From: a virus
Taxonomy: Duplodnaviria; Heunggongvirae; Uroviricota; Caudoviricetes
Strand: one strand, 5' to 3'
Length of the DNA stretch: 9,730 bases
Virus record (IMG/VR): IMGVR_UViG_3300018478_000064
Location: 1 to 9,730 of that record
Below are positions 1-9,730 of this stretch, piece by piece. Positions within the stretch are counted from its first letter, which is position 1, and each line of letters begins with the position of its first letter. Below the pieces are notes generated by a model. It was given only the letters and a program-made list of their open reading frames with translations. It was not told the DNA's origin and did no database searches. The translations under genes and the position numbers were made by a program.

Positions 1-924
1 AACTCCATTAACTTTTATTTGAACTTCTCCTGATGCCGGAAGATTTACTTTCAAAGAGATAACCCATGGTTGTTTCGACGTATTTGTGTACGTGATTCCA
101 GGATACTTATCTGTGACGATCTGATACGTTTGATCTGTACCGATTAACTGAGACGCTGTTGCTAACGCGACAACACTGTCACTCTGTGCATGTCGCATAT
201 ATGGTTTTGTTGCATCATTTCTACTAAAACCAATGACACTGGCTCCATCACCAGTGACCATATCATCCAACTCTAGGTATTGGATAACATCATGAATACT
301 AGACTTACCGATGATATCTCGTCCTACCTTCGTAAAATCGGTAAGGTCTGCACTATTTTCATTGTTGAAATATGGTAGTTTATTAGTTGTTGCGATCAAA
401 TTCGCAAGAGCACTCAAAGTGTCATTCGAATCCTGCTTTTCATCTAAAGCAGTGCTTAATTCCTCTTGTGTAGTCAACAAAATTACAGTGTCTGTATCTT
501 GATGCCTGAAATACGGTTTATTTATAACACCTTTACTAAAACCAATGACATTGGCTCCATCACCAATAACAGCATTGGATATTCCAAGGTTTTCGAGAGC
601 TGTTTTCACCGTGCCGTCCGATTTGATATCGCCAAACGGATTCTTGCGGCTCAGGTATTCAACAGCAAACCCCGATCCCAGCAATTCAACAAAACCGGGC
701 AGATCACCATTATCAAGCACATCCCGTTGCGTTTTATCACTTACAAACTGGGCCAGAGCTGCAGCAATAAAGCTAGCCTGCCGAATAACCTTATTGACTT
801 GCGCACTGGAGGCTTTCCCTGCTGTAAATCCGGATAAAAGCGCGGGCAACGCTTCCCATTCCTCCTGCGATATAACATTGGCATTTCGATCCGTTGCAAA
901 CGCTTTAAAGTCATTTTTCGCCAT
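1..924 (-). CDS. Tail fibre protein, N-terminal part (P2 gpH / Mu gpS / lambda Stf family); 3' end lies beyond the window start
   Basis: Not in the ORF track because it has no stop in the window. Manual minus-strand translation from the ATG at 924..922 (TGATG overlap with the upstream gene stop) is open to position 1, about 308 codons, starting [33 protein letters not shown]. It contains ...[37 protein letters not shown], which closely resembles the conserved P2 gpH segment FPYFTGNDVASLATLTKVGRDILAKSTVAAVIEYLGL as I recall it. Position immediately after the J-like and gp48-like genes fits a fibre gene. Confidence 0.8.
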
Positions 925-1604
925 CAGAGTAATACTCCCCATGCTCCTACATCAAAACCACTGATGAATTCGTTATCCATATCAAAACCAAAAAATTTTG
1001 AGCCTTCCGATGGGGTTTCCACCGAAGGTGTTTCAATGCCACCCGCCCATACCCCGGCGGCTTTTACTGTGAGATACCCCTGTTTAATTGCCGCAATTAA
1101 CTCACGCGATACATCTGAAATATCAGTATCAGGAAAGACCCAGACCGATATCGTCATGTCCTGGTTATCGACTATCTGCATTCGCAGCCCGGATCCTGCT
1201 GTTGCCGCGTCAAGAATTGCCGGAAGCGAATCATTCCGTCCGTCCCAGTTATTAATCGCAATCTTCGCTTTAAGAATGACACGATAAGTTTCATCGCTGA
1301 GATACATGTATCCTGAATCAGGATCGTATGGTCCCTGCCATACCCCCTGATCATATCCAAGACCGTCGGTATCCCAGCTGAAATAGACACCTGAGATAGG
1401 CTGGCTGACAACACGGCTACGTCCGATCCACAATCCAAGAATGTCAAGTTGCACACCAACCGCAGAGTCAATATCAAATGCAGTAATCAGCCCTCTGGTG
1501 GCAGCCGCAACATCAATAAGTGGCCGGGTCATCAGATCAACATGCGCAAGAAATTTAGGTTTGGTGGCGTGGTAGTTCGTGATTAGTTCGGTGTATTTGC
1601 TCAT
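924..1604 (-). CDS. Baseplate/tail protein, Mu gp48 / P2 gpI-like (DUF2313, YmfQ-like)
   Basis: 226-aa ORF. Its start overlaps the stop of the upstream J-like gene (1601..1604) and its stop overlaps the fibre gene start. Size and position between the J-like gene and the fibre gene match Mu gp48 / P2 gpI. Family assigned from position and general sequence character, not from a search. Confidence 0.65.
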
Positions 1605-2800
1605 GACTCCACCGTTATAACGATATTTTCCGGGGTACAGGACGCAGATTCGTTGTATCTGATATCAATGTTTGATGACGACAAAGCCCCCGGGGATTTA
1701 CCAATCGTCAGTTCCTGAATATCGTAATAGCGTGCATTCCCGCCACTCACCACGCCAAGATTCGCCGGTGAGTAAATGCGACTTAAAAGGACCGAATCAC
1801 CGATCGTCAGACTATTGATATAGTCAGAAATAGCCTGCTGGATTTGCTGCCCTATCTGTGATGTATAACCCGTAAAAACTTTTAATTTAATCCGGGCATA
1901 AACAGGCACATCACTGGAACGCGAGAATTTGATTACATGGGGATTGCCGTATTTATCCGGAACCGTAACGGATGTTGTACCGTGAGTGGCTGTCCCCTGG
2001 CCTTTATTTCCTCTGATAGCCTGAGCAATATCCGTCACATCACCGCCATCCACAATTACAGCAACAGAGTGTGGCGGTAACCCGTTACCGTCCTCCGAGC
2101 CAGTATCGTTTTCATAGAGTTTGTGGCGGGTTACACCGGTAACATTAGAAACAGCACCATCCAGTGCTTCAAATGGGGTTATTGATGGCAACGCAACACT
2201 TTGCGACTGACGGATACGTAACTCCGCATCAGTTTCTGCCGGAGTGCCTACAGTAGCTGCAGCAGGATTGGTTACCGAAACCCAGCCACGGGTTGGCGTA
2301 TTAATTTCAGTGATAGTTCCAGCCAGCGCCGCCACTGCACCACTGACGGAACATGTTGCGGTCGCCATCACTGTACCATCCACGCCGACCACCACTGAAG
2401 CAGGCAAACGCCATATCACATTATTACCATCTTTCACGCTGCCATTAATGATGGTTGTTCCGGCAGTTCCTGTAAGAAGCAAATCAACCGTAGAGTTCGT
2501 CGCGCCTTTACGTGAAATACCATTTATTTTCACGTTACTGGTCAGTGCAGCCCCATAGCCGGTTGCCGGTGAAAAACAGTTGTAGACAGTTATCGCCGTA
2601 TTATTGGCATCATGAATCGCCAGCGCCATCAGAGCCACCATCTGGCCGTCTTTGCTGTCCGGTTCGAGGTAGGCATCACTACCATAAATCTGCTGAAAAT
2701 AGCTAATCAGGGTGCTGAGTATCGTCTGATAATCAGGCGCACTGATCCCCTCCGCGGTTACCTTTGCAGATAAACCGAGAGAATCAAGGTTCAGAGCCAT
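1601..2800 (-). CDS. Baseplate J-like protein (Mu gp47 / P2 gpJ / T4 gp6 family)
   Basis: 399-aa ORF whose start shares base 2800 with the stop of the upstream 117-aa gene. Gly/Thr/Val-rich beta-type composition and the position between the gp25-like and gp48-like genes are typical of baseplate J wedge proteins. Confidence 0.75.
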   Translation of the reverse strand: MALNLDSLGLSAKVTAEGISAPDYQTILSTLISYFQQIYGSDAYLEPDSKDGQMVALMALAIHDANNTAITVYNCFSPATGYGAALTSNVKINGISRKGATNSTVDLLLTGTAGTTIINGSVKDGNNVIWRLPASVVVGVDGTVMATATCSVSGAVAALAGTITEINTPTRGWVSVTNPAAATVGTPAETDAELRIRQSQSVALPSITPFEALDGAVSNVTGVTRHKLYENDTGSEDGNGLPPHSVAVIVDGGDVTDIAQAIRGNKGQGTATHGTTSVTVPDKYGNPHVIKFSRSSDVPVYARIKLKVFTGYTSQIGQQIQQAISDYINSLTIGDSVLLSRIYSPANLGVVSGGNARYYDIQELTIGKSPGALSSSNIDIRYNESASCTPENIVITVES

Positions 2801-3153
2801 TACGCCTCCGATGTAACAGTCGTTATTCCATAGAGAGTGTCGATTTCAGCGGAAAACATGACACGTCGGGTCGTGGTATCCACCGTCGTATTGAAAGAGA
2901 GGATTGATTTAACGCCCTGCGTTTCCAGAATGCGTTTTCTGATCGCTAGGTTGTAAGTTTCCGGTTTTTGCCTGCCCAGCACAGACTGGATCCACGGAGT
3001 CCCTTCGGTGGTGTCGAGAAACCATTGCCCATACCACAATTCGAATCGCGTTTTTACCGCCTGCGCCACGGCCTCCGGTGAGTTAATCAGCCAGGTGTCA
3101 TCACCGCTGCCAAAGGTGTAATCGCCATCGGCGTCTTCACGTCTGTATCGCAT
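2800..3153 (-). CDS. Small baseplate protein in the gpW / gp25 / Mu gp46 position (DUF2634 / XkdS-like)
   Basis: 117-aa ORF lying directly between the spike gene and the J-like gene; its start shares base 3153 with the spike gene stop. This position is held by the gp25-like wedge initiator in Mu, P2 and PBSX-type clusters. Confidence 0.6.
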   Translation of the reverse strand: MRYRREDADGDYTFGSGDDTWLINSPEAVAQAVKTRFELWYGQWFLDTTEGTPWIQSVLGRQKPETYNLAIRKRILETQGVKSILSFNTTVDTTTRRVMFSAEIDTLYGITTVTSEA

Positions 3154-3905
3154 CAGTTTACCCCGTCGGTACTGCTTCCACCGCGCTGAACACCGCCATG
3201 AGTGTGCGTATCATCGATTGGCTTGCCGTTAGCCTTCACGCTCCCCAAAAACTCAACAGCACCAGTGATTTTTGAAGCCACACCAGAAACAACAGACCCC
3301 ACCATGCCACCCATCCAGGTTAACAGACCATGAATGGTTACTTTCTCAGAAAAATCAGCCAGAGGGGCAACCACATCAAGACCACCCGGAGCGACAATTT
3401 TAATTTTCCTGGTATCAGGATTAAGCTCAAAATAGGTGCTGCCGTCGTCACTACGCAACTGTGTGGCACTGGTATTAATACCGCTAATCTTCCTCGCCTG
3501 CGACTGGGGACCGACAATACAAAACGCATCCGATAAATCATGCATTCTGTCATCGACTGGCTCCTGTATCCCGCCACTCTGCCACCAGAAATCAATACAA
3601 CGATCGGCAAAAACGACAAGACACTCATCCCCGGCTTTTACCGGAAAAGTCAACGTACAGCCTCCGCCGCGCGGGAATACCACTGGTACATCCACCAGCA
3701 GGGGTAATGTCGTCGACTGGTTGATTCCATTTGAGTCCGGCTCATAGCCTTTAATCGCAGGTTGAACAACCACTGTTACCGTGTCCGGATCAAATGACTG
3801 GACGATGCCGGGCATAGAAACACGCAGCGCCGACATGACAGAGCCAGCAAGTCTTACATCGGCCTGTTCTTTGCTACCAAGTTGAGCGCTTAAAGAAACG
3901 GGCAT
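3153..3905 (-). CDS. Baseplate central spike protein (P2 gpV / Mu gp45-like)
   Basis: 250-aa ORF. N-terminal region (PGIVQSFDPDTVTVVVQ...PVVFPRGGG...KAGDECLVVFADR) looks like the gpV OB-fold spike domain. C-terminus ends ...DDTHTHGGVQRGGSSTDGVN, with an HxH motif of the kind that coordinates iron at the gpV-type spike apex. A GGAGA Shine-Dalgarno sits about 7 nt upstream of the ATG. Confidence 0.75.
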   Translation of the reverse strand: MPVSLSAQLGSKEQADVRLAGSVMSALRVSMPGIVQSFDPDTVTVVVQPAIKGYEPDSNGINQSTTLPLLVDVPVVFPRGGGCTLTFPVKAGDECLVVFADRCIDFWWQSGGIQEPVDDRMHDLSDAFCIVGPQSQARKISGINTSATQLRSDDGSTYFELNPDTRKIKIVAPGGLDVVAPLADFSEKVTIHGLLTWMGGMVGSVVSGVASKITGAVEFLGSVKANGKPIDDTHTHGGVQRGGSSTDGVN

Positions 3906-3925
3906 TCATATGTCTCCAGAAAGTA

Positions 3926-3949
3926 AAAAACCCGCCGGGTGGCGGGTTC
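3926..3949 (-). terminator. Rho-independent terminator downstream of the 79-aa membrane protein gene
   Basis: Plus-strand text AAAAAACCCGCCGGGTGGCGGGTT. On the minus strand this reads AACCCGCCacccGGCGGGTTTTTT: a 6-8 bp GC stem, 4-nt loop and T6 tract. It lies between the 79-aa ORF stop (3965) and the spike gene start (3905). Hand-counted coordinates, +/-2 bp. Confidence 0.6.
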
Positions 3950-3964
3950 ATTATTGAAGTTTCA

Positions 3965-4204
3965 TTACTGCTTGTTTGCTTCTAACGCTTCAGCTATTCG
4001 GCGAAGATACTCATTGTTTTTAAATGAAACCATGATGCACTCAAAGAATATTCGGCAAAATACAGCACATAACAAAAGCACTAAAGCGCCAGCAGCCTTC
4101 CCATTAACAAACGTTATAATGGCGGCAACAACCAGAAGTAACATTGTGATGCCATACAGAACGTTGATGATTTTTGGAGTTATTAATTTATCAAATCCGA
4201 ACAT
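3965..4204 (-). CDS. Small inner-membrane protein, two predicted transmembrane helices and a charged C-terminal tail; accessory (moron) gene of unknown function
   Basis: 79-aa ORF MFGFDKLITPKIINVLYGITMLLLVVAAIITFVNGKAAGALVLLLCAVFCRIFFECIMVSFKNNEYLRRIAEALEANKQ. Two hydrophobic stretches of about 21 residues separated by a short NGKAAG loop, then a charged tail. An AAGGAA Shine-Dalgarno sits about 8 nt upstream of the ATG, a candidate promoter lies upstream and the terminator lies downstream. The region is visibly AT-rich. Confidence 0.6.
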   Translation of the reverse strand: MFGFDKLITPKIINVLYGITMLLLVVAAIITFVNGKAAGALVLLLCAVFCRIFFECIMVSFKNNEYLRRIAEALEANKQ

Positions 4205-4240
4205 GCGACAAATTCCTTATCGTGAAAGTAGAAGTATCAC

Positions 4241-4268
4241 ATTATAATTACGGGTGATTAATCAACAA
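4241..4268 (-). promoter_or_regulatory. Candidate sigma70 promoter for the 79-aa membrane protein gene
   Basis: On the minus strand: -35-like TTGTTG (plus 4263-4268), 16-nt spacer, perfect -10 TATAAT (plus 4241-4246), about 35 nt upstream of the ATG at 4204. A 10-bp perfect palindrome TGATTAATCA (plus about 4255-4264) overlaps the -35/spacer. Hand-counted coordinates. Confidence 0.35.
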
Positions 4269-4343
4269 TCTTTTTGCATGGAAAGGAACCGATGATTTTC
4301 GGCGCATCCATGCTGTTCTGCAGAAGCTGGACGCCAATGTGAT

Positions 4344-4679
4344 TCACTTCACCTTCCGACAATCATACGTCCAGAACTCCCGAGGCTCGTCCATATTTTT
4401 GCGGATAACTTCAACGTTGAGGATCGGCTTGCCATTTCTGGCCACAAAATCCATCCCTAACCAACGCCCATTACCCGGAATCATCCATTGGATGTTCACA
4501 TTGTCATAATCACCTTCCTGTTTGAGAAAGATGATTTTCTGTGTCTCCGGTTTCTGTCCATTAATCCTTGCAAGTCCGTCTTGCGCTTTCCAGTTGATCG
4601 TAAATGGTCCGCAACCGGTATCAGCAAAGGAAATGAAGGAGATACAGACAAGTAAAACTGTCAACAATAGTCTTTTCAT
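4344..4679 (-). CDS. Sec-exported periplasmic protein (signal peptide, two Cys), unknown function; accessory gene inside the tail operon
   Basis: 111-aa ORF. N-terminus MKRLLLTVLLVCISFISFA / DTG has a positive n-region, a 15-residue hydrophobic core and a SFA signal-peptidase I site. There is no lipobox (D at -3 relative to Cys). The mature protein has Cys near each end (DTGC...TYDC). Its start overlaps the hub gene stop as ATGA (4676-4679). Confidence 0.7.
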   Translation of the reverse strand: MKRLLLTVLLVCISFISFADTGCGPFTINWKAQDGLARINGQKPETQKIIFLKQEGDYDNVNIQWMIPGNGRWLGMDFVARNGKPILNVEVIRKNMDEPREFWTYDCRKVK

Positions 4680-5707
4680 GTGTATTTCGCCGCATCAATC
4701 CCTTTCGAGTTAAGCAATTCTTTGCCACCTTTAGCCAGGCAAAGCAGGTCCATATACCACGCCTGCCCTCGGGTGTCGCCAGTATAATCAATGCTGCCCA
4801 CAATGTAATCACCGTCAGTATTAATGCTGGCAGGCTGTGACATGCCTGGCAGACCGTTAACGTAGAGATTACCGTCGCTTTCAGACTCATCCAGTCGTGC
4901 TGGCGATTTCGCTACCTGGTCATTACTCAAAGAGGCACGGTATACAGATGCCTGATCCAGACGAATAAGCCCACCGAGCTTAATATTTGGATTAATCAGA
5001 CATCTGACATTTACGCCAGCTCCCATCGTCTGCTGTGGCATACCGATAAGCCCGGTGTTAGCATTCAACACTGTAGCAACACCAATATATTTATCTTCAG
5101 GAACAATATTTACCAGATTATTTTCATACCACCAGTTAGCTTTACACTGCCCTGCGATATGATTCATCAACCTTGATGTGTTTTGATAAACAACGCGACC
5201 CCGGGGAAATACCGTTTCCGGCATGTCAGGAACTGCGCCGGATTCGATGCCATATGGTTCGAATGATTTCATACCCAGACTGAAAAGATCGCTGTACTTC
5301 CAGCCAGCTGCCACTGTTGTTTTCACACTTGCGTTCAGATGGCCTTCCCAGCTGTCAATACACTGCAACATGATCCAACTGTCTGTGGCATTATCTTTAC
5401 CAGTGACAGTAAAACGGATATCTCCATTGAATATCATACCAACGTTTTCATCAGGATAATTACCTGCTGCATCCGGTTGCCCCTTGTATCCGGCAATAAC
5501 CTGTATACGCGAAAACTCCTTCTGCATAATCCGGTTCTGAGTGGTAGGAGACAGGTTATAAACCTTAAAATTTCCAACGAATCCATTGAATATGGTCGCA
5601 GGCATTTTCTGAATATTGAAAGTGACTTTAAGCTCAGAAATTTTTATCCCGTCGCCCTTATCATCAACAAGCAATAATTCAAAGTGACGCATCCAGTTTT
5701 TCGACAT
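4676..5707 (-). CDS. Baseplate hub-like protein (tentatively P2 gpD / Mu gp44 / T4 gp27-like)
   Basis: 343-aa ORF directly upstream, in transcription order, of the accessory insertion and the spike gene. The N-terminal segment HFELLLVDDKGDGIKISELKVTFNIQK resembles in style the late-control-D N-terminus (LISLTLTDNRGFEADQLDIELDD in P2 gpD). The functional call is positional and tentative. Confidence 0.5.
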   Translation of the reverse strand: MSKNWMRHFELLLVDDKGDGIKISELKVTFNIQKMPATIFNGFVGNFKVYNLSPTTQNRIMQKEFSRIQVIAGYKGQPDAAGNYPDENVGMIFNGDIRFTVTGKDNATDSWIMLQCIDSWEGHLNASVKTTVAAGWKYSDLFSLGMKSFEPYGIESGAVPDMPETVFPRGRVVYQNTSRLMNHIAGQCKANWWYENNLVNIVPEDKYIGVATVLNANTGLIGMPQQTMGAGVNVRCLINPNIKLGGLIRLDQASVYRASLSNDQVAKSPARLDESESDGNLYVNGLPGMSQPASINTDGDYIVGSIDYTGDTRGQAWYMDLLCLAKGGKELLNSKGIDAAKYT

Positions 5708-5709
5708 TG

Positions 5710-6012
5710 TTACTCCGTGAAAACATAGAGGTGTGAGAGCGTTCCAAGATCGAATTGCGTCGGATTCTCCTGCCCTGCCACGTCGCAGAGCACCACCAGA
5801 GAAAAACCCAGATCCATATATCGATACTGTGCCAGCAGGTCAGCCCCCGTAATCATCGGTATACCTGATATAATGGCGGAGCCATTGCTGTCAGCAAGAT
5901 CCAGAACCCAGTACTCGCCTCGCCAGATGACAGACAGGTGATAAACCGAACCGTTAATTGTGGTGGCAAAAGTCTGATTGTCAGCAACCAGTGGGATTTC
6001 TACGGCTTCCAT
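5710..6012 (-). CDS. Small phage tail-operon protein, unknown function
   Basis: 100-aa ORF tightly packed between the 217-aa ORF and the hub-like gene (2-bp gap to the hub start). It has its own Shine-Dalgarno (GGAAGGTG) overlapping the upstream stop codon. Confidence 0.6.
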   Translation of the reverse strand: MEAVEIPLVADNQTFATTINGSVYHLSVIWRGEYWVLDLADSNGSAIISGIPMITGADLLAQYRYMDLGFSLVVLCDVAGQENPTQFDLGTLSHLYVFTE

Positions 6013-6015
6013 GAA

Positions 6016-6669
6016 TCACCTTCCCAGAAATAAATTGCTCAAATACCCATCAACAGTGGAGATACCTTCTTGCGCCATCTGTGGCAGCGATTTCAGAATG
6101 GAATTATTCGGCGGCACCGTTGTTTTGGTGCCTGTATTCTGCACAGCAGACGTTCCGACTCCCTCGGTCATATTGTTTTTCGGGGCAACCCTGACTGACT
6201 GCGTGGAGGTAATAATTACTTCCCTGAGGGTAAGTGTCGCCAGAAGCACATTTTCACTACTCTTATCGGTCGTGACCTCCAGCGTTTTTATCAACATATT
6301 GTTGTAAATACGCTTGCCGGTTGTCACATCGAAAGGAATACGATTCCGCTGCAGGTTAAGCAGTTCCTGATACAGTTCTTTCGGGCTCAGCCCCAGTAAA
6401 CTGGTAGCAGTCAGGTTACTGGCAAAATCAAGCAGCGATCCGCCTCCGGAAAAACCGGTTTCCATCACAACCTCAGAAGGGCGCCTGAATGCGTGTTCTG
6501 ATATGTAACCAGCGCCCTCACCACTGGCACCAGCATTCGTGGGCTGTTCAACCGGATGTTCCGTAATTTCCAGGGCGTCAGTGTGCTTTTCGGTAATAAC
6601 CACATCAGGAATAATGATTCCTATTGAGCGGGTTCGCTGCTGCAGTAAAACAGATAAAAAGTCCATCAC
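6016..6669 (-). CDS. Phage tail protein of unknown family immediately downstream of the tape measure gene (in the position held by Mu gp43 or a distal-tail protein)
   Basis: 217-aa ORF whose start overlaps the tape measure stop as ATGA (6666-6669). No motif I can confidently assign; no LysM signature seen. Confidence 0.6.
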   Translation of the reverse strand: MMDFLSVLLQQRTRSIGIIIPDVVITEKHTDALEITEHPVEQPTNAGASGEGAGYISEHAFRRPSEVVMETGFSGGGSLLDFASNLTATSLLGLSPKELYQELLNLQRNRIPFDVTTGKRIYNNMLIKTLEVTTDKSSENVLLATLTLREVIITSTQSVRVAPKNNMTEGVGTSAVQNTGTKTTVPPNNSILKSLPQMAQEGISTVDGYLSNLFLGR

Positions 6670-8672
6670 GCAGGCCCTTTCAATTGCTGTACCGCCCTGG
6701 CATTTACAGCCCCCTGCTTGTCAGCAATCAGATTAGCCGCCTCCTGAGGGTTGTTAACTCCATGAACATTTATAACAGTCTGCTGGTTAAGGCTGCCAGC
6801 GGCGGCCTGATACGCCAGCGGGCTGTTCCAGTTTGAATAACCTTCTTTGCGCGCCATCGACTGCATCAATGCTCCCATAGTCCGGGGATCTGTAAGATTC
6901 AATATTGCATTCGGTGATACTCCCATCCATTTCGCAACATCCTGTGCATACTTTTTCGGATCGTTGTTATCACCTGCCGGGGCCCAGGTACTGACAATAT
7001 CCTGAATAGTCTGTAATGCCCGTCCGGTTGTTTTCCCGGTAAAGTAACGCATGAGCTGGTTTTTCATCGCCTCCCAGCCCTCAAGCGCTGATTCGAAAAA
7101 CCGGAACCCTTTACCGCTCACCGGGCGAATGTTCCCGGGGTTATTGTTGCGATCAGCAAGAGTGCCGCCGCCGGGGATGTCGGGCTGGACGTTGGAGCCA
7201 TGCACTACACCGTTACTCTGTCCCTGCCGGATAACTTTACCGGGTCCCCCGTGCAACCAGTCCATCCACGCAGGCCATTCACGGACCTCACTGACATCCC
7301 TGCGTCCGATATCTGTTTTTATACCAATAGCAGCCAGCGTGTCGCCGATAATTCGCTTCGTATACCTCAGTGAAGATTTTGCGCTATCGGCAATATTTTC
7401 TCTGTCACTAACAATATAGCCCGCGTAAAGCGCCCACAATTTAAGCCAGGGTGGGACCGGTAAACCTGATATTTTTCCGAAAGCCCCCAGAACCCTGGAT
7501 ACCCAGACACCCGCGATGAATGTACCGAGGATTTCCAGTGCATTTTGCCAGCCGCCAACACCATCTTTTAGTTCCAGAAGGTGATCACGAAGCCAGGTGA
7601 TCGCATCCTTCGCTTTATCTATTGCCGGTTGCCATTTTTCCCAGTCGATAAGACTGTTACCGCCTTCTTTCCATGTTTTGTAGTCTTCCCACAAGAGACC
7701 GAGAGCCACGATCAGACCGGTAATCAGCCCTATAGGTGACATCCAGAAAGTAGAGTTAAGTATCCGCATGGCGACAACCAGACCGCCGATAACCTCTATC
7801 AGGGTTTTCGTTTCGGCATCCAGTTTCCCCCACCACTCGATGATATCTCCGACACCATCGACTATCCGAAATGCTACCCGCCCGACTATCTCACCCAGCC
7901 AGAGGATCCCCTTTATGACCTTTGTGATGGTGACTTCAATTTTGGGAAAATTTTCAATTATCTTTTTGCGCAGGTTATCAATCTGCCCCGCCAGTCCGTC
8001 CGCAAGATTCGATCCGATTTTGTCCCGCGCCATCCCGGCCATTTCACCGAGCGATTTCAGTGAGGTCATAAACCGGTTTGACGATAAGGCAGCCTGATCG
8101 GCATTAAATCCGATCGCTTTCACCATTTCTGAATACTGAGCGCTGAACTGCCCCACTCCGCGACGCATAGCCATCAGGGTATTTTCGTCAATGCCCAGCA
8201 TCTGCGCATACTGGTTAGCCCGGTAATACGGCATGCTGCTGAGTTTCTGTCCAACGCCCGTAAAGATAGCAGCCATGTCACGCATGTTACCGCTGGCATC
8301 ACGGGTCTGTACGCCCAGGCGATTCAGAAAGCCTTCTGCTCCGGGATTGTTACGAATAAACCGGGAGAGGCTTTCCAGAGAAGATCGCGCAGCGTCCACG
8401 CTGCCGCCAACCTGCGAAACCGCATAGCCAATAGACTGAATTCCCTGGACTGTCGCGCCGGTGCGCTGTGACGCCCAGTAAAGATTATCCAGACCGGAGG
8501 CGATCTTAGCCGTGAAGGCCACCACGGACAGCGCGGCTCCTTCAACGGCCAGCCCCATTTTGATGACATTTGCAGTTGTACCGGCGAGGACAGAACCGAA
8601 TTTTTTCGCTCCTGCATCATCCACACTGAAGCCAAGCGAGACGAGGAAATCTTTAATAGTTTCAGCGTTCAT
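6666..8672 (-). CDS. Tail tape measure protein
   Basis: Largest ORF in the window. The track starts it at a TTG (8693, 675 aa). The ATG at 8672, preceded by GGAGAGAGG about 5 nt upstream, is the more likely start (about 668 aa). Ala/Gly/Ser-rich helical N-terminal region, a central hydrophobic block (LIEVIGGLVVAMRILNSTFWMSPIGLITGLIVALGLLW) and a position right after a frameshifted chaperone gene are all typical of tape measure proteins. Confidence 0.9.
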   Translation of the reverse strand: MNAETIKDFLVSLGFSVDDAGAKKFGSVLAGTTANVIKMGLAVEGAALSVVAFTAKIASGLDNLYWASQRTGATVQGIQSIGYAVSQVGGSVDAARSSLESLSRFIRNNPGAEGFLNRLGVQTRDASGNMRDMAAIFTGVGQKLSSMPYYRANQYAQMLGIDENTLMAMRRGVGQFSAQYSEMVKAIGFNADQAALSSNRFMTSLKSLGEMAGMARDKIGSNLADGLAGQIDNLRKKIIENFPKIEVTITKVIKGILWLGEIVGRVAFRIVDGVGDIIEWWGKLDAETKTLIEVIGGLVVAMRILNSTFWMSPIGLITGLIVALGLLWEDYKTWKEGGNSLIDWEKWQPAIDKAKDAITWLRDHLLELKDGVGGWQNALEILGTFIAGVWVSRVLGAFGKISGLPVPPWLKLWALYAGYIVSDRENIADSAKSSLRYTKRIIGDTLAAIGIKTDIGRRDVSEVREWPAWMDWLHGGPGKVIRQGQSNGVVHGSNVQPDIPGGGTLADRNNNPGNIRPVSGKGFRFFESALEGWEAMKNQLMRYFTGKTTGRALQTIQDIVSTWAPAGDNNDPKKYAQDVAKWMGVSPNAILNLTDPRTMGALMQSMARKEGYSNWNSPLAYQAAAGSLNQQTVINVHGVNNPQEAANLIADKQGAVNARAVQQLKGPA

Positions 8673-9302
8673 TATCCTCTCTCCATTTCTCAATGCGCCG
8701 CTGGTTATCCGCTTTTACCGCCAGATGGTCATTCAAGAGAGCAATGTCGTACAAATCGACAGAGCCATCTTTAAGTGCTGTATAAGGAATTAACCCGGCG
8801 TCAACCGGATTGAGAAGGTAGGACAGCCCGTCCGGCAGGCTGTTAAACGTCAGCCCTGTTGCAGGCTCTGCGTCGTGCTGGTAAGGGGTGTAGGCAAAAA
8901 ATTTCCCAGCGAATCGGCGACCACCCGCGCCACCAGATGAAGCATGACCAGCAGGTCAATATCATCAAACATCAGTTCGCCCCGGGTAAATACCGGCACC
9001 CATCCGTCCATATGACGCCGCGATACCACCGCAAGACAGGGATGAATAATCGCATCGGTGTCATCTTCGGTCAGGGAAGACAGTTCCTCAGCGATACGCG
9101 GGAGCATGGTTTCAAACACCGGTTTTAACTGCTCGAATTTCACGGTGTCGATTTTGCCGTCAGCAGGCAAACGGGAGCGAATGCTCCCGAAATCTGACAT
9201 CATTCCTGCCAGCACCGGCAGAAGTTTGCGGGTCACTTTCAGCTGGTCAAAAACGCTGAGTTTTGCCACGCGATATTTCACGCCTTTGATTTCGAATTCC
9301 AT
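8662..9302 (-). CDS. Predicted -1 frameshift fusion product of the tail assembly chaperone (gpGT-like, about 200 aa)
   Basis: My hand translation of the minus strand finds the -1 frame open from the slippery site, through the whole 157-bp gap, to a TGA at about 8664..8662 that overlaps the first codons of the tape measure gene. About 80 codons, ...KFFAYTPYQHDAEPATGLTFNSLPDGLSYLLNPVDAGLIPYTALKDGSVDLYDIALLNDHLAVKADNQRRIEKWREDNER. Confidence 0.5.
8850..9302 (-). CDS. Tail assembly chaperone (gpG-like, short product)
   Basis: 150-aa acidic ORF immediately upstream of the tape measure gene, with a slippery sequence near its 3' end and an open -1 frame downstream. Confidence 0.7.
   Translation of the reverse strand: MEFEIKGVKYRVAKLSVFDQLKVTRKLLPVLAGMMSDFGSIRSRLPADGKIDTVKFEQLKPVFETMLPRIAEELSSLTEDDTDAIIHPCLAVVSRRHMDGWVPVFTRGELMFDDIDLLVMLHLVARVVADSLGNFLPTPLTSTTQSLQQG
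8896..8907 (-). other. Candidate -1 programmed ribosomal frameshift (slippery) site
   Basis: Minus-strand text CTG GGA AAT TTT TTG in the chaperone frame contains G_GGA_AAT (same class as lambda G_GGA_AAG), immediately followed by A_AAT_TTT and T_TTT_TTG, all fitting the X_XXY_YYZ rule. Hand-counted coordinates. Confidence 0.5.
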
Positions 9303-9305
9303 CTA

Positions 9306-9728
9306 TTAAAACTCCCCGAGAACCTGGTCAATCTTGCCGCAGTCAAACACCCACGGCATCGTATTACCGGTTTTAGCGTTGGCGTTATCCGGTTGTTTCT
9401 GGAACGCAACACTGCGTGCCGTGATGATGTCGCCGCTGACCTTGTTGCGGATCACGATAACGTTATTCCCCCATGTGGCAGAAGACTGGCTCTGTGCGTT
9501 ATACGCCAGCGACAATTTTTTATTTGTCGGTGATGTCTTCAGAAGGTTAACGGTAATCGTCCCGCTTTTATCTGCATGGAGACTGTGCATCACTTCGCCA
9601 TCAGCACCGATAGTCATGGTGTTTTTAGGACCGCCCATCGCAACCACAATCCCCTCTTCAGAACTTGCCGAACCGTACCCGAGGTCAATCGAACCGGTCG
9701 GCCCGGTCAGCGTCGCAGTGACATCCAT
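9306..9728 (-). CDS. Phage tail structural protein, possibly tail tube; N-terminus may lie beyond the window end
   Basis: 140-aa ORF whose first ATG is 2 nt from the window end, so the true start and any ribosome-binding site are not visible. Beta-rich composition. Its stop is 4 bp from the chaperone start. In Mu/P2-type operons the tube gene precedes the chaperone. Confidence 0.4.
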   Translation of the reverse strand: MDVTATLTGPTGSIDLGYGSASSEEGIVVAMGGPKNTMTIGADGEVMHSLHADKSGTITVNLLKTSPTNKKLSLAYNAQSQSSATWGNNVIVIRNKVSGDIITARSVAFQKQPDNANAKTGNTMPWVFDCGKIDQVLGEF

Positions 9729-9730
9729 AA

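Follow-up and report, generated by a model that had tools for sequence, protein, structure and literature searches.

A SEN34-like Escherichia coli prophage with a probable programmed -1 ribosomal frameshift of the G/GT type in its tail assembly chaperone gene

In a tailed phage, what is encoded in the gap that separates the gene of the tail assembly chaperone from the tape measure gene, and how would ribosomes reach it? The question is raised by a stretch of 9,730 nucleotides (nt), positions 1 to 9,730 of the IMG/VR virus record IMGVR_UViG_3300018478_000064 (hereafter, the window), all genes of which lie on the minus strand. Along that strand, the tail tube gene, the tail assembly chaperone (TAC) gene, an open reading frame (ORF) in the -1 frame and the tape measure gene follow one another, which is the gene order of G/GT-type loci. 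A frameshift in the chaperone gene is among the most conserved features of long-tailed phages. A first-pass annotation, made from the letters of the sequence, had proposed that the gap between the two genes, given as 157 bp, encodes an extension of the chaperone, reached by a lambda-like -1 frameshift at the slippery run G_GGA_AAT_TTT_TTG. As a whole, the comparisons reported here make a G/GT-type programmed -1 ribosomal frameshift very probable, in the chaperone gene of a contractile-tailed, SEN34-like (Brunovirus-related) E. coli prophage.

The -1 frame and the domain it encodes

A six-frame translation of the locus, with the three frames of the minus strand covering 9330..8600, showed that the -1 frame is open over 97 codons (8955..8665), 80 of which (8904..8665) come after the slippery run. 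Its stop, TGA at 8664..8662, is found 8 nt 3' of the A of the tape measure ATG, giving an 11-nt overlap between the two frames. The open frame of about 80 codons, the stop overlapping the tape measure start and the position of the run, whose GGA sits 18 codons before the chaperone stop, had all been given correctly in the first-pass annotation, and re-translation revealed no stop codon across 8904..8665. Its reading of the gap as coding agrees with this open and conserved frame. The length of the gap, on the other hand, had to be corrected: it measures 177 nt (8849..8673) to the ATG, which the Prokaryotic Genome Annotation Pipeline (PGAP) and the phage records choose as the tape measure start, and 156 nt only if the upstream TTG 8693 is taken instead.

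Both parts of the predicted fused product belong to described families. The chaperone ORF matches Phage_TAC_15 of Pfam (PF21822; 106.3 bits, E = 2.1e-30, residues 6-138, gathering threshold 22 bits) and phrog_1688 of PHROGs, a 'tail assembly chaperone' family (1e-64). As for the -1 frame translation, it matches DUF6889 of Pfam (PF21829; 72.6 bits, E = 2.1e-20, gathering threshold 23.9 bits) and phrog_4364 of PHROGs (3.7e-23), two families listed as of 'unknown function'. A scan of NCBIfam with the chaperone and the extension gave no match, and no mention of DUF6889 was found in the literature searched for that name. Concerning possible starts, the -1 frame of the window contains neither ATG nor GTG, and its sole TTG (8754) would give 30 amino acids (aa), beginning inside the Pfam domain.

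A frame of this length could in principle be open by chance, or be an evolutionary relic without a product. In the 11 genes of the window, stops in the -1 frame occur every ~13 codons (0.079 per codon), the longest open run elsewhere is 59 codons, and an openness of 80 codons was found at 0 of 1852 positions. When the 240 nt of the frame after the run were submitted to mononucleotide shuffling, about 2% of the shuffles were stop-free. These figures come from a single sequence, and the evidence from the comparison of relatives, given below, is far stronger.

The predicted fused product has 213 aa. An AlphaFold2 model of this fusion (predicted local distance difference test, pLDDT, 81; predicted template modelling score, pTM, 0.74) consists of a chaperone domain modelled with confidence (residues 1-137), a linker without order (140-157) and a small helical domain (160-212), the DUF6889 part being helical with pLDDT values of 85-93. 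Its structural neighbours in BFVD are tail assembly chaperones, and a weak match (E = 0.09) was also obtained to the chaperone of phage Moogle, one of the phages of the Adele comparison below.

Selection on the -1 frame and the slippery run

A scan of viral contigs had provided only relatives with at least 94% identity, which were uninformative on substitutions. A scan of one genome per species was used instead, giving 70 Enterobacterales loci with 45-85% chaperone identity; the comparison further took in the window, Salmonella phage SEN34, Yersinia phage YP3 and a divergent allele from E. coli. The chaperone is intact in 72 of 73 loci, and the counts per 72 given hereafter refer to this intact set. 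In the relatives, the chaperone stop lies 12-17 codons past the T run. The -1 frame counted from the run is open over 77-84 codons in 69/72 loci, vs. a median of ~18-22 for the +1-frame control.

The synonymous sites of the chaperone gene behave accordingly along its length. Synonymous identity, taken as the use of the same codon between pairs sharing the amino acid, is ~0.45-0.5 along the gene and 0.8-0.94 from codon 133/134 through the stop, with values of 1.0 at codons 134-136, where every Asn codon is AAT, every Phe codon TTT and every Leu codon TTG. Such a jump at the run is the mark expected of a second reading frame beginning there. For codon positions 1, 2 and 3 of the -1 frame, pairs of loci differ on average by 0.28, 0.24 and 0.56 downstream of the chaperone stop and by 0.31, 0.24 and 0.48 inside the overlap, where the most variable base is the second base of the 0-frame codon, i.e. 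the third of the -1-frame codon. Because variation in the overlap is biased towards this third position, selection there acts mainly on the -1 product. From the T run onward, the substitution pattern indicates that the -1 frame is under selection at the protein level, with the peptide consensus FFaRtPrqrd...LPdGedyl.rPvdag.i.y..LkdG.vDL.DiA.mND.Ld.kadN..RI..Wr. As in G/GT pairs, the second ORF thus overlaps the 3' end of the chaperone gene in the -1 frame with no conserved start of its own, diverged relatives keep the arrangement, and a coding signature is seen in the extension.

With these data, the chance or relic origin of the open frame becomes hardly credible at all. Apart from the 2% of stop-free shuffles, it could count on the three of 72 relatives in which the frame is broken or aberrant. 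One of these (L142) is from Arsenophonus, an insect symbiont, and all three may be decaying prophages. Openness in 69/72 diverged loci and in the distant phages checked, variability by codon position, synonymous-site conservation, the Pfam and PHROGs matches and the natural fusions described below effectively refute it.

A few loci depart from the common arrangement. The -1 frame meets a stop after 39 codons in L118 and after 11 in L142, and in L133 it runs over 258 codons; in L094 the chaperone itself is truncated at 47 aa. These four may be decaying or rearranged prophages.

The same comparison bears on a stand-alone origin of the DUF6889 protein, i.e. an independent small gene of 54 aa from CTG 8826, or of 30 aa from TTG 8754, translated separately or by re-initiation. 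In those E. coli records that were inspected, PGAP annotates a coding sequence (CDS) of this kind, the members of the family in Pfam and PHROGs are short proteins on their own, and a small ORF is called there in some phage records (Providencia PSTCR3, Edwardsiella ZHS). The CTG is not conserved, however: in most relatives GAA or GAG replaces it, as part of an LPDGE motif, and conservation goes on 5' of it. Only 16 of 69 relatives have an ATG, GTG or TTG between the run and this LPDG motif, at scattered positions, and TTG 8754 falls inside the Pfam domain. Moreover, protein-level conservation and the codon-position signature are already present between the T run and the chaperone stop, which a stand-alone gene leaves unexplained, and every single-ORF occurrence of DUF6889 that was found carries an upstream TAC domain. 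An independent gene is therefore considered very unlikely, and the CTG-start CDS is probably spurious, the 3' part of the extension having been called as a gene under the guidance of profiles.

If the extension is reached from the chaperone frame, the shift would take place on the slippery run. In the window, this run comprises three overlapping heptamers in phase with the X_XXY_YYZ pattern, namely G_GGA_AAT, A_AAT_TTT and T_TTT_TTG. The sequence of the run is identical in 85 of 86 loci of a first set, and among close relatives 45 nt are invariant, an invariance that is gone at greater divergence. At the species level, what persists is a T6 or T7 run in the phase T_TTT_TTN, the first T being the third base of a codon, in 72/72 intact relatives (T6 in 64, T7 in 8). 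This first T is always T across AAT, AGT, GGT and GAT codons (N, S, G and D), although a change there would be synonymous in the 0 frame and the -1 product does not decode it. The AAA beside the run does vary, as in GGCGGTTTTTTG, GGCAGTTTTTTG and GGAAGTTTTTTG. In four variant contexts (five loci), a stop of the -1 frame directly abuts the 5' side of the T run (GGTAGTTTTTTT, GGTAATTTTTTT, GGTGATTTTTTG); a shift on G_GGA_AAT or A_AAT_TTT is impossible there, and the T run must suffice.

T_TTT_TTG, with UUU in the P site and UUG in the A site of the ribosome, is hence the most probable shift heptamer as judged from these alignments. The proposal of a G/GT-type -1 frameshift is in this respect upheld by gene order, protein families and comparative data, whereas the lambda-like part of the run is not the conserved element among close relatives: G_GGA_AAT is in phase in the window and lost in several relatives. 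The heptamers also differ in the peptides they predict. A shift on T_TTT_TTG would give the junction ...SLGNFL|AYTP... and the peptide SLGNFLAYTPYQHD, whereas a shift on A_AAT_TTT or G_GGA_AAT, slippage in the P site only, or a U7 transcript would give ...SLGNFF|AYTP... and the peptide SLGNFFAYTPYQHD.

Two kinds of stimulatory signals were considered and discarded. Downstream of the run, the single-sequence fold of 8910..8780 shows weak hairpins only (z = -1.8), and RNAalifold on 34 diverged sequences gave -0.29 kcal/mol and no covariation, i.e. essentially no consensus structure. Upstream, synonymous conservation before codon 132 is at baseline, leaving a Shine-Dalgarno (SD)-like stimulator unsupported.

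Distant phages, natural fusions and known systems

A 731-nt region of the window matches a prophage of E. coli FDAARGOS_946 at 100% identity, and the region is present in 315 of 5,426 complete E. coli genomes. Its phage relatives are four vB_EcoM isolates (98%), YP3 (85%) and SEN34 (78%), the latter being a member of the genus Brunovirus with myovirus morphology. The stretch is unannotated in the records of these phages.

When the fused protein was compared by tblastn with 50,697 phage records, 40 records matched, all of them (40/40) in two pieces. Six distant phages among these were checked directly, and in each of them DUF6889 is in the -1 frame, which continues for 55-75 codons past the chaperone stop. 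Their heptamers vary: G_GGA_AAT in a Bordetella phage, G_GGT_TTT and T_TTT_TTC in a Ralstonia phage, G_GGA_AAT and A_AAT_TTT in an Acinetobacter phage, and T_TTT_TTT in a Providencia phage. In addition, Burkholderia phage Magia (L161, ~810) has an annotated frameshift product, with C_CCT_TTT at the homologous Leu-Gly-Pro-Phe position. Since different heptamers occupy the homologous spot, the heptamer used would be interchangeable.

The closest annotated counterpart was found in Klebsiella phage Mulock (MN098327.1), another phage of another host, which has an orthologous gene pair at the same position before the tape measure gene, with 58% identity to the fused protein. It shares the same GGGAAATTTTTTG run in the same phase and the same -1 extension with DUF6889, and its CPT_Mulock_014/015 are recorded as 'tape measure chaperone' and 'tape measure chaperone frameshift product', the latter as a two-piece join that rests on annotation. 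The frameshift is mentioned neither in the Mulock genome announcement nor in the SEN34 paper.

Also, the two domains occur naturally in a single frame. In P0001 (Logan assembly SRR23924998, L006 ~1900), T7 replaces T6 and the 213-aa fusion is in frame exactly at the run; its protein cluster has 16 members, including CDL28562.1 of E. coli ISC7, and the UniRef entry of one member has n=10. This T7 allele may be a homopolymer sequencing error or a real GT-only mutant, and such mutants, if real, should have defective tails. When P0001 was used in an exhaustive search without profiles, seven distant proteins of 191-210 aa (~30-35% identity) gave a single match running through the junction, and each of them has Phage_TAC_15 and DUF6889 in a single frame. 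A search of viral contigs with P0143 gave no match. At the junction, fusions reading 'NLHGYF-SYTPVAFD' and 'SLARFL-AYEPIEFE' align with the predicted 'SLGNFL-AYTPYQHD'. Their DNA is GC-rich, without a slippery run at the junction (CGC TTC CTG GCC; CCG TTC TTC TCC). One lineage has a separate Phage_TAC_15 gene of 167 aa immediately before the fused gene (L157 1989..3130, L158 577..1718), a pair of genes in place of a frameshift; within the locus shown for L157, no tape-measure-sized gene is found between the TAC genes and the spike gene. A GC-rich single ORF joining TAC_15 and DUF6889 without a slippery run is also present at L159 2501..3133. Natural single-frame fusions in distant lineages indicate that the long isoform is a real, selected protein. 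As a separate observation, P0075 (212 aa, Logan) is a chimeric ORF, in which an N-terminal PF06163 (DUF977-like) segment takes the place of the first third of the chaperone; this points to a prophage that has been rearranged or to an error of assembly.

Another way of reaching the extension would be transcriptional slippage, in which RNA polymerase adds an extra U at T6, a minority of the mRNAs encode the 213-aa fusion in frame and the ribosomes keep their frame. The conserved element is indeed a homopolymer, no RNA stimulator is conserved, and the genomic T7 allele yields exactly the product of a one-U insertion; the paper on phage Adele (PMC12846349) also counts on this side through its citation of Vladimirov et al. 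Efficient slippage of bacterial RNA polymerase has, however, been described for ~9 A/T (PMC5009743), more than the T6 of the window and the T6 or T7 of all relatives. Moreover, the distant -1 arrangements occur on non-homopolymer heptamers, such as C_CCT_TTT in Magia, G_GGA_AAT in the Bordetella phage and A_AAT_TTT in the Acinetobacter phage, which fit re-pairing of tRNAs and not polymerase slippage, and the identical TTTTTTG of phage P2 is reported as a translational frameshift (PMC3091744). A purely transcriptional origin is thus unlikely; as a lesser possibility, transcription may account for part of the shift at U6.

Among the systems described, E/E+E' of P2 resembles the window in the site itself. 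A -1 shift at TTTTTTG without a downstream RNA structure is reported for it in PMC3091744, where Christie et al. 2002 and Xu, Hendrix and Duda 2004 are cited. Both phages are contractile-tailed, with the same heptamer (8901..8895 in the window) and no conserved downstream structure, the P2 proteins being shorter (91 and 142 aa vs. 150 and 213 aa). A Pfam scan of the window protein at E <= 0.1 gave Phage_TAC_15 and DUF6889 only, with no family of gpE/gpE+E'; the locus would consequently work like P2 E/E+E' without being a member of that protein family. In lambda G/GT, the shift is low-level and without a strong stimulator, the tape measure protein being bound by the part common to both products and the tube/tail protein by the extension (PMC5009743). 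The window agrees with it in gene order, in the -1 direction and in the division of labour proposed, whereas lambda is a siphovirus that shifts on G_GGA_AAG, and no sequence homology to the window proteins was detected.

A third comparison is offered by the paper on phage Adele, in which a -1 frameshift is proposed in the chaperone locus of Vandenendeviridae and Andersonviridae, on the grounds of a -1 frame that runs on without interruption and of GTTTTT, a poly-T motif that is conserved (PMC12846349). The argument and the method are the same as here. These phages are also myoviruses with a KPP10-type tube protein, and their chaperone-tape measure region is routinely annotated as 'hypothetical protein'; they differ in being lytic, on Pseudomonas, Acinetobacter and Citrobacter, while the window is from an E. 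coli prophage. Given that the phenomenon is textbook knowledge, that an orthologue is already annotated in GenBank and that PMC12846349 argues alike, the novelty of the present case is low.

In the mechanism that we favour, most ribosomes would make the 150-aa chaperone and terminate at 8852..8850, and a minority would slip back by one nucleotide on G_GGA_AAT_TTT_TTG, the likeliest event being a tandem slippage of tRNA-Phe and tRNA-Leu on U_UUU_UUG (8901..8895). The slipped ribosomes would read 77 further codons in the -1 frame to the TGA at 8664..8662, resulting in a 213-aa protein composed of the chaperone domain, the disordered linker and the small helical DUF6889 domain. By analogy with gpG/gpGT of lambda and E/E+E' of P2, the tape measure protein would be coated by the N-terminal part shared by the two products, while recruitment of the tube protein would fall to the C-terminal domain, with the slip frequency presumably setting the ratio of the short to the long product. 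That the arrangement implies a functional tail assembly pathway, as the first-pass annotation had it, goes further than a sequence can tell.

Several observations weigh against this frameshift or its precise site. No canonical X_XXY_YYZ heptamer is present in Burkholderia vB_E192a or in Edwardsiella ZHS, although both have DUF6889 in the -1 frame, and the Bordetella phage has only G_GGA_AAT among the canonical heptamers, which bears on the exact site. In the window itself, the three heptamers overlap, and peptide data alone can tell which one is used. Conservation of the T run is partly due to dual coding and common descent and is not an independent proof of slipperiness, and the U6 run could also allow low-level slippage of RNA polymerase. 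When solved structures were compared with the fusion model, no TAC structure matched.

At the level of the family, DUF6889 could be the 'T domain' of Phage_TAC_15, the short and long chaperones being made in at least two ways: by -1 frameshifting with interchangeable heptamers (T_TTT_TTG, C_CCT_TTT, G_GGA_AAT) in most lineages, and from an in-frame TAC-DUF6889 gene in some GC-rich ones, in at least one case after a short TAC gene (L157/L158). This wider proposal is tentative, and we would put it slightly below an even chance. If true, the Phage_TAC_15 family would be a natural experiment on why, and at what ratio, tail assembly uses frameshifting.

Annotation and gene content of the window

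The coordinates of the features are collected in Table 1.

Table 1. Features of the chaperone locus and its neighbours, in window positions
Feature	Coordinates	Strand	Evidence or remarks
Tail tube gene	9306..9728	minus	Pfam PF11681 KPP10_Orf10, 1e-55; PGAP name 'DUF3277 family protein'
Chaperone ORF, short 'G-like' product, 150 aa	8850..9302 (ATG 9302, TGA 8852..8850)	minus	Phage_TAC_15, phrog_1688
Slippery run G_GGA_AAT_TTT_TTG	8895..8907	minus	0-frame codons 133-136 GGA AAT TTT TTG (8906..8895) after G 8907
T_TTT_TTG, most probable shift heptamer (P-site UUU Phe135, A-site UUG Leu136)	8895..8901	minus	Conservation in relatives
Predicted -1 extension ('T-like' part), 77-79 residues depending on heptamer	8662..8898	minus	Translation
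Dual-coded overlap, 0-frame chaperone tail and start of extension	8850..8898	minus	Synonymous-site and codon-position data
DUF6889 domain in extension	8671..8787	minus	Pfam PF21829, residues 57-95 of the 97-codon -1 ORF
'DUF6889 family protein' WP_071819661.1, 54 aa, CTG start	8662..8826 (L004 10005..10169)	minus	RefSeq/PGAP, E. coli records inspected
Tape measure gene, 668 aa, ATG 8672..8670	6666..8672	minus	phrog_2276 'tail length tape measure protein', 1e-248; PGAP start = ATG

The main value of the analysis concerns annotation. The CTG-start CDS of RefSeq should become a ribosomal-slippage join, and the spurious small gene should be removed. Most phage records leave the stretch of the extension empty, and for Pfam and PHROGs the family is of unknown function; DUF6889/phrog_4364 can now be read as the probable C-terminal ('T') domain of the long chaperone isoform, which would give this DUF a function. 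Also, the conserved T_TTT_TTG locus offers a clean test case for frameshift predictors.

As for the neighbouring genes, the tube protein is of the KPP10/PhiTE type, and the 5' end of its gene lies beyond the window, since in the identical E. coli record the complete gene encodes 146 aa. Ahead of the tape measure ATG, within the end of the -1 ORF, there is an SD-like GGAGAGAGG (8684..8676). Residues ~488-667 of the tape measure protein, its C-terminal third, match endolysin and transglycosylase PHROGs (phrog_873, 2e-46), and PGAP names the homologues 'lytic transglycosylase'; the protein thus probably carries a cell-wall-degrading domain.

The remainder of the window is a Pam3/E217-like baseplate module. 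Between the genes of the baseplate hub region and the spike gene, it holds an ORF for a 79-aa DUF4282 membrane protein (3965..4204, minus strand). At this position, the otherwise near-identical prophage of FDAARGOS_946 has a Phd/Doc toxin-antitoxin pair (L004 14568..15388), so that the site looks like a cargo ('moron') slot inside the tail module.

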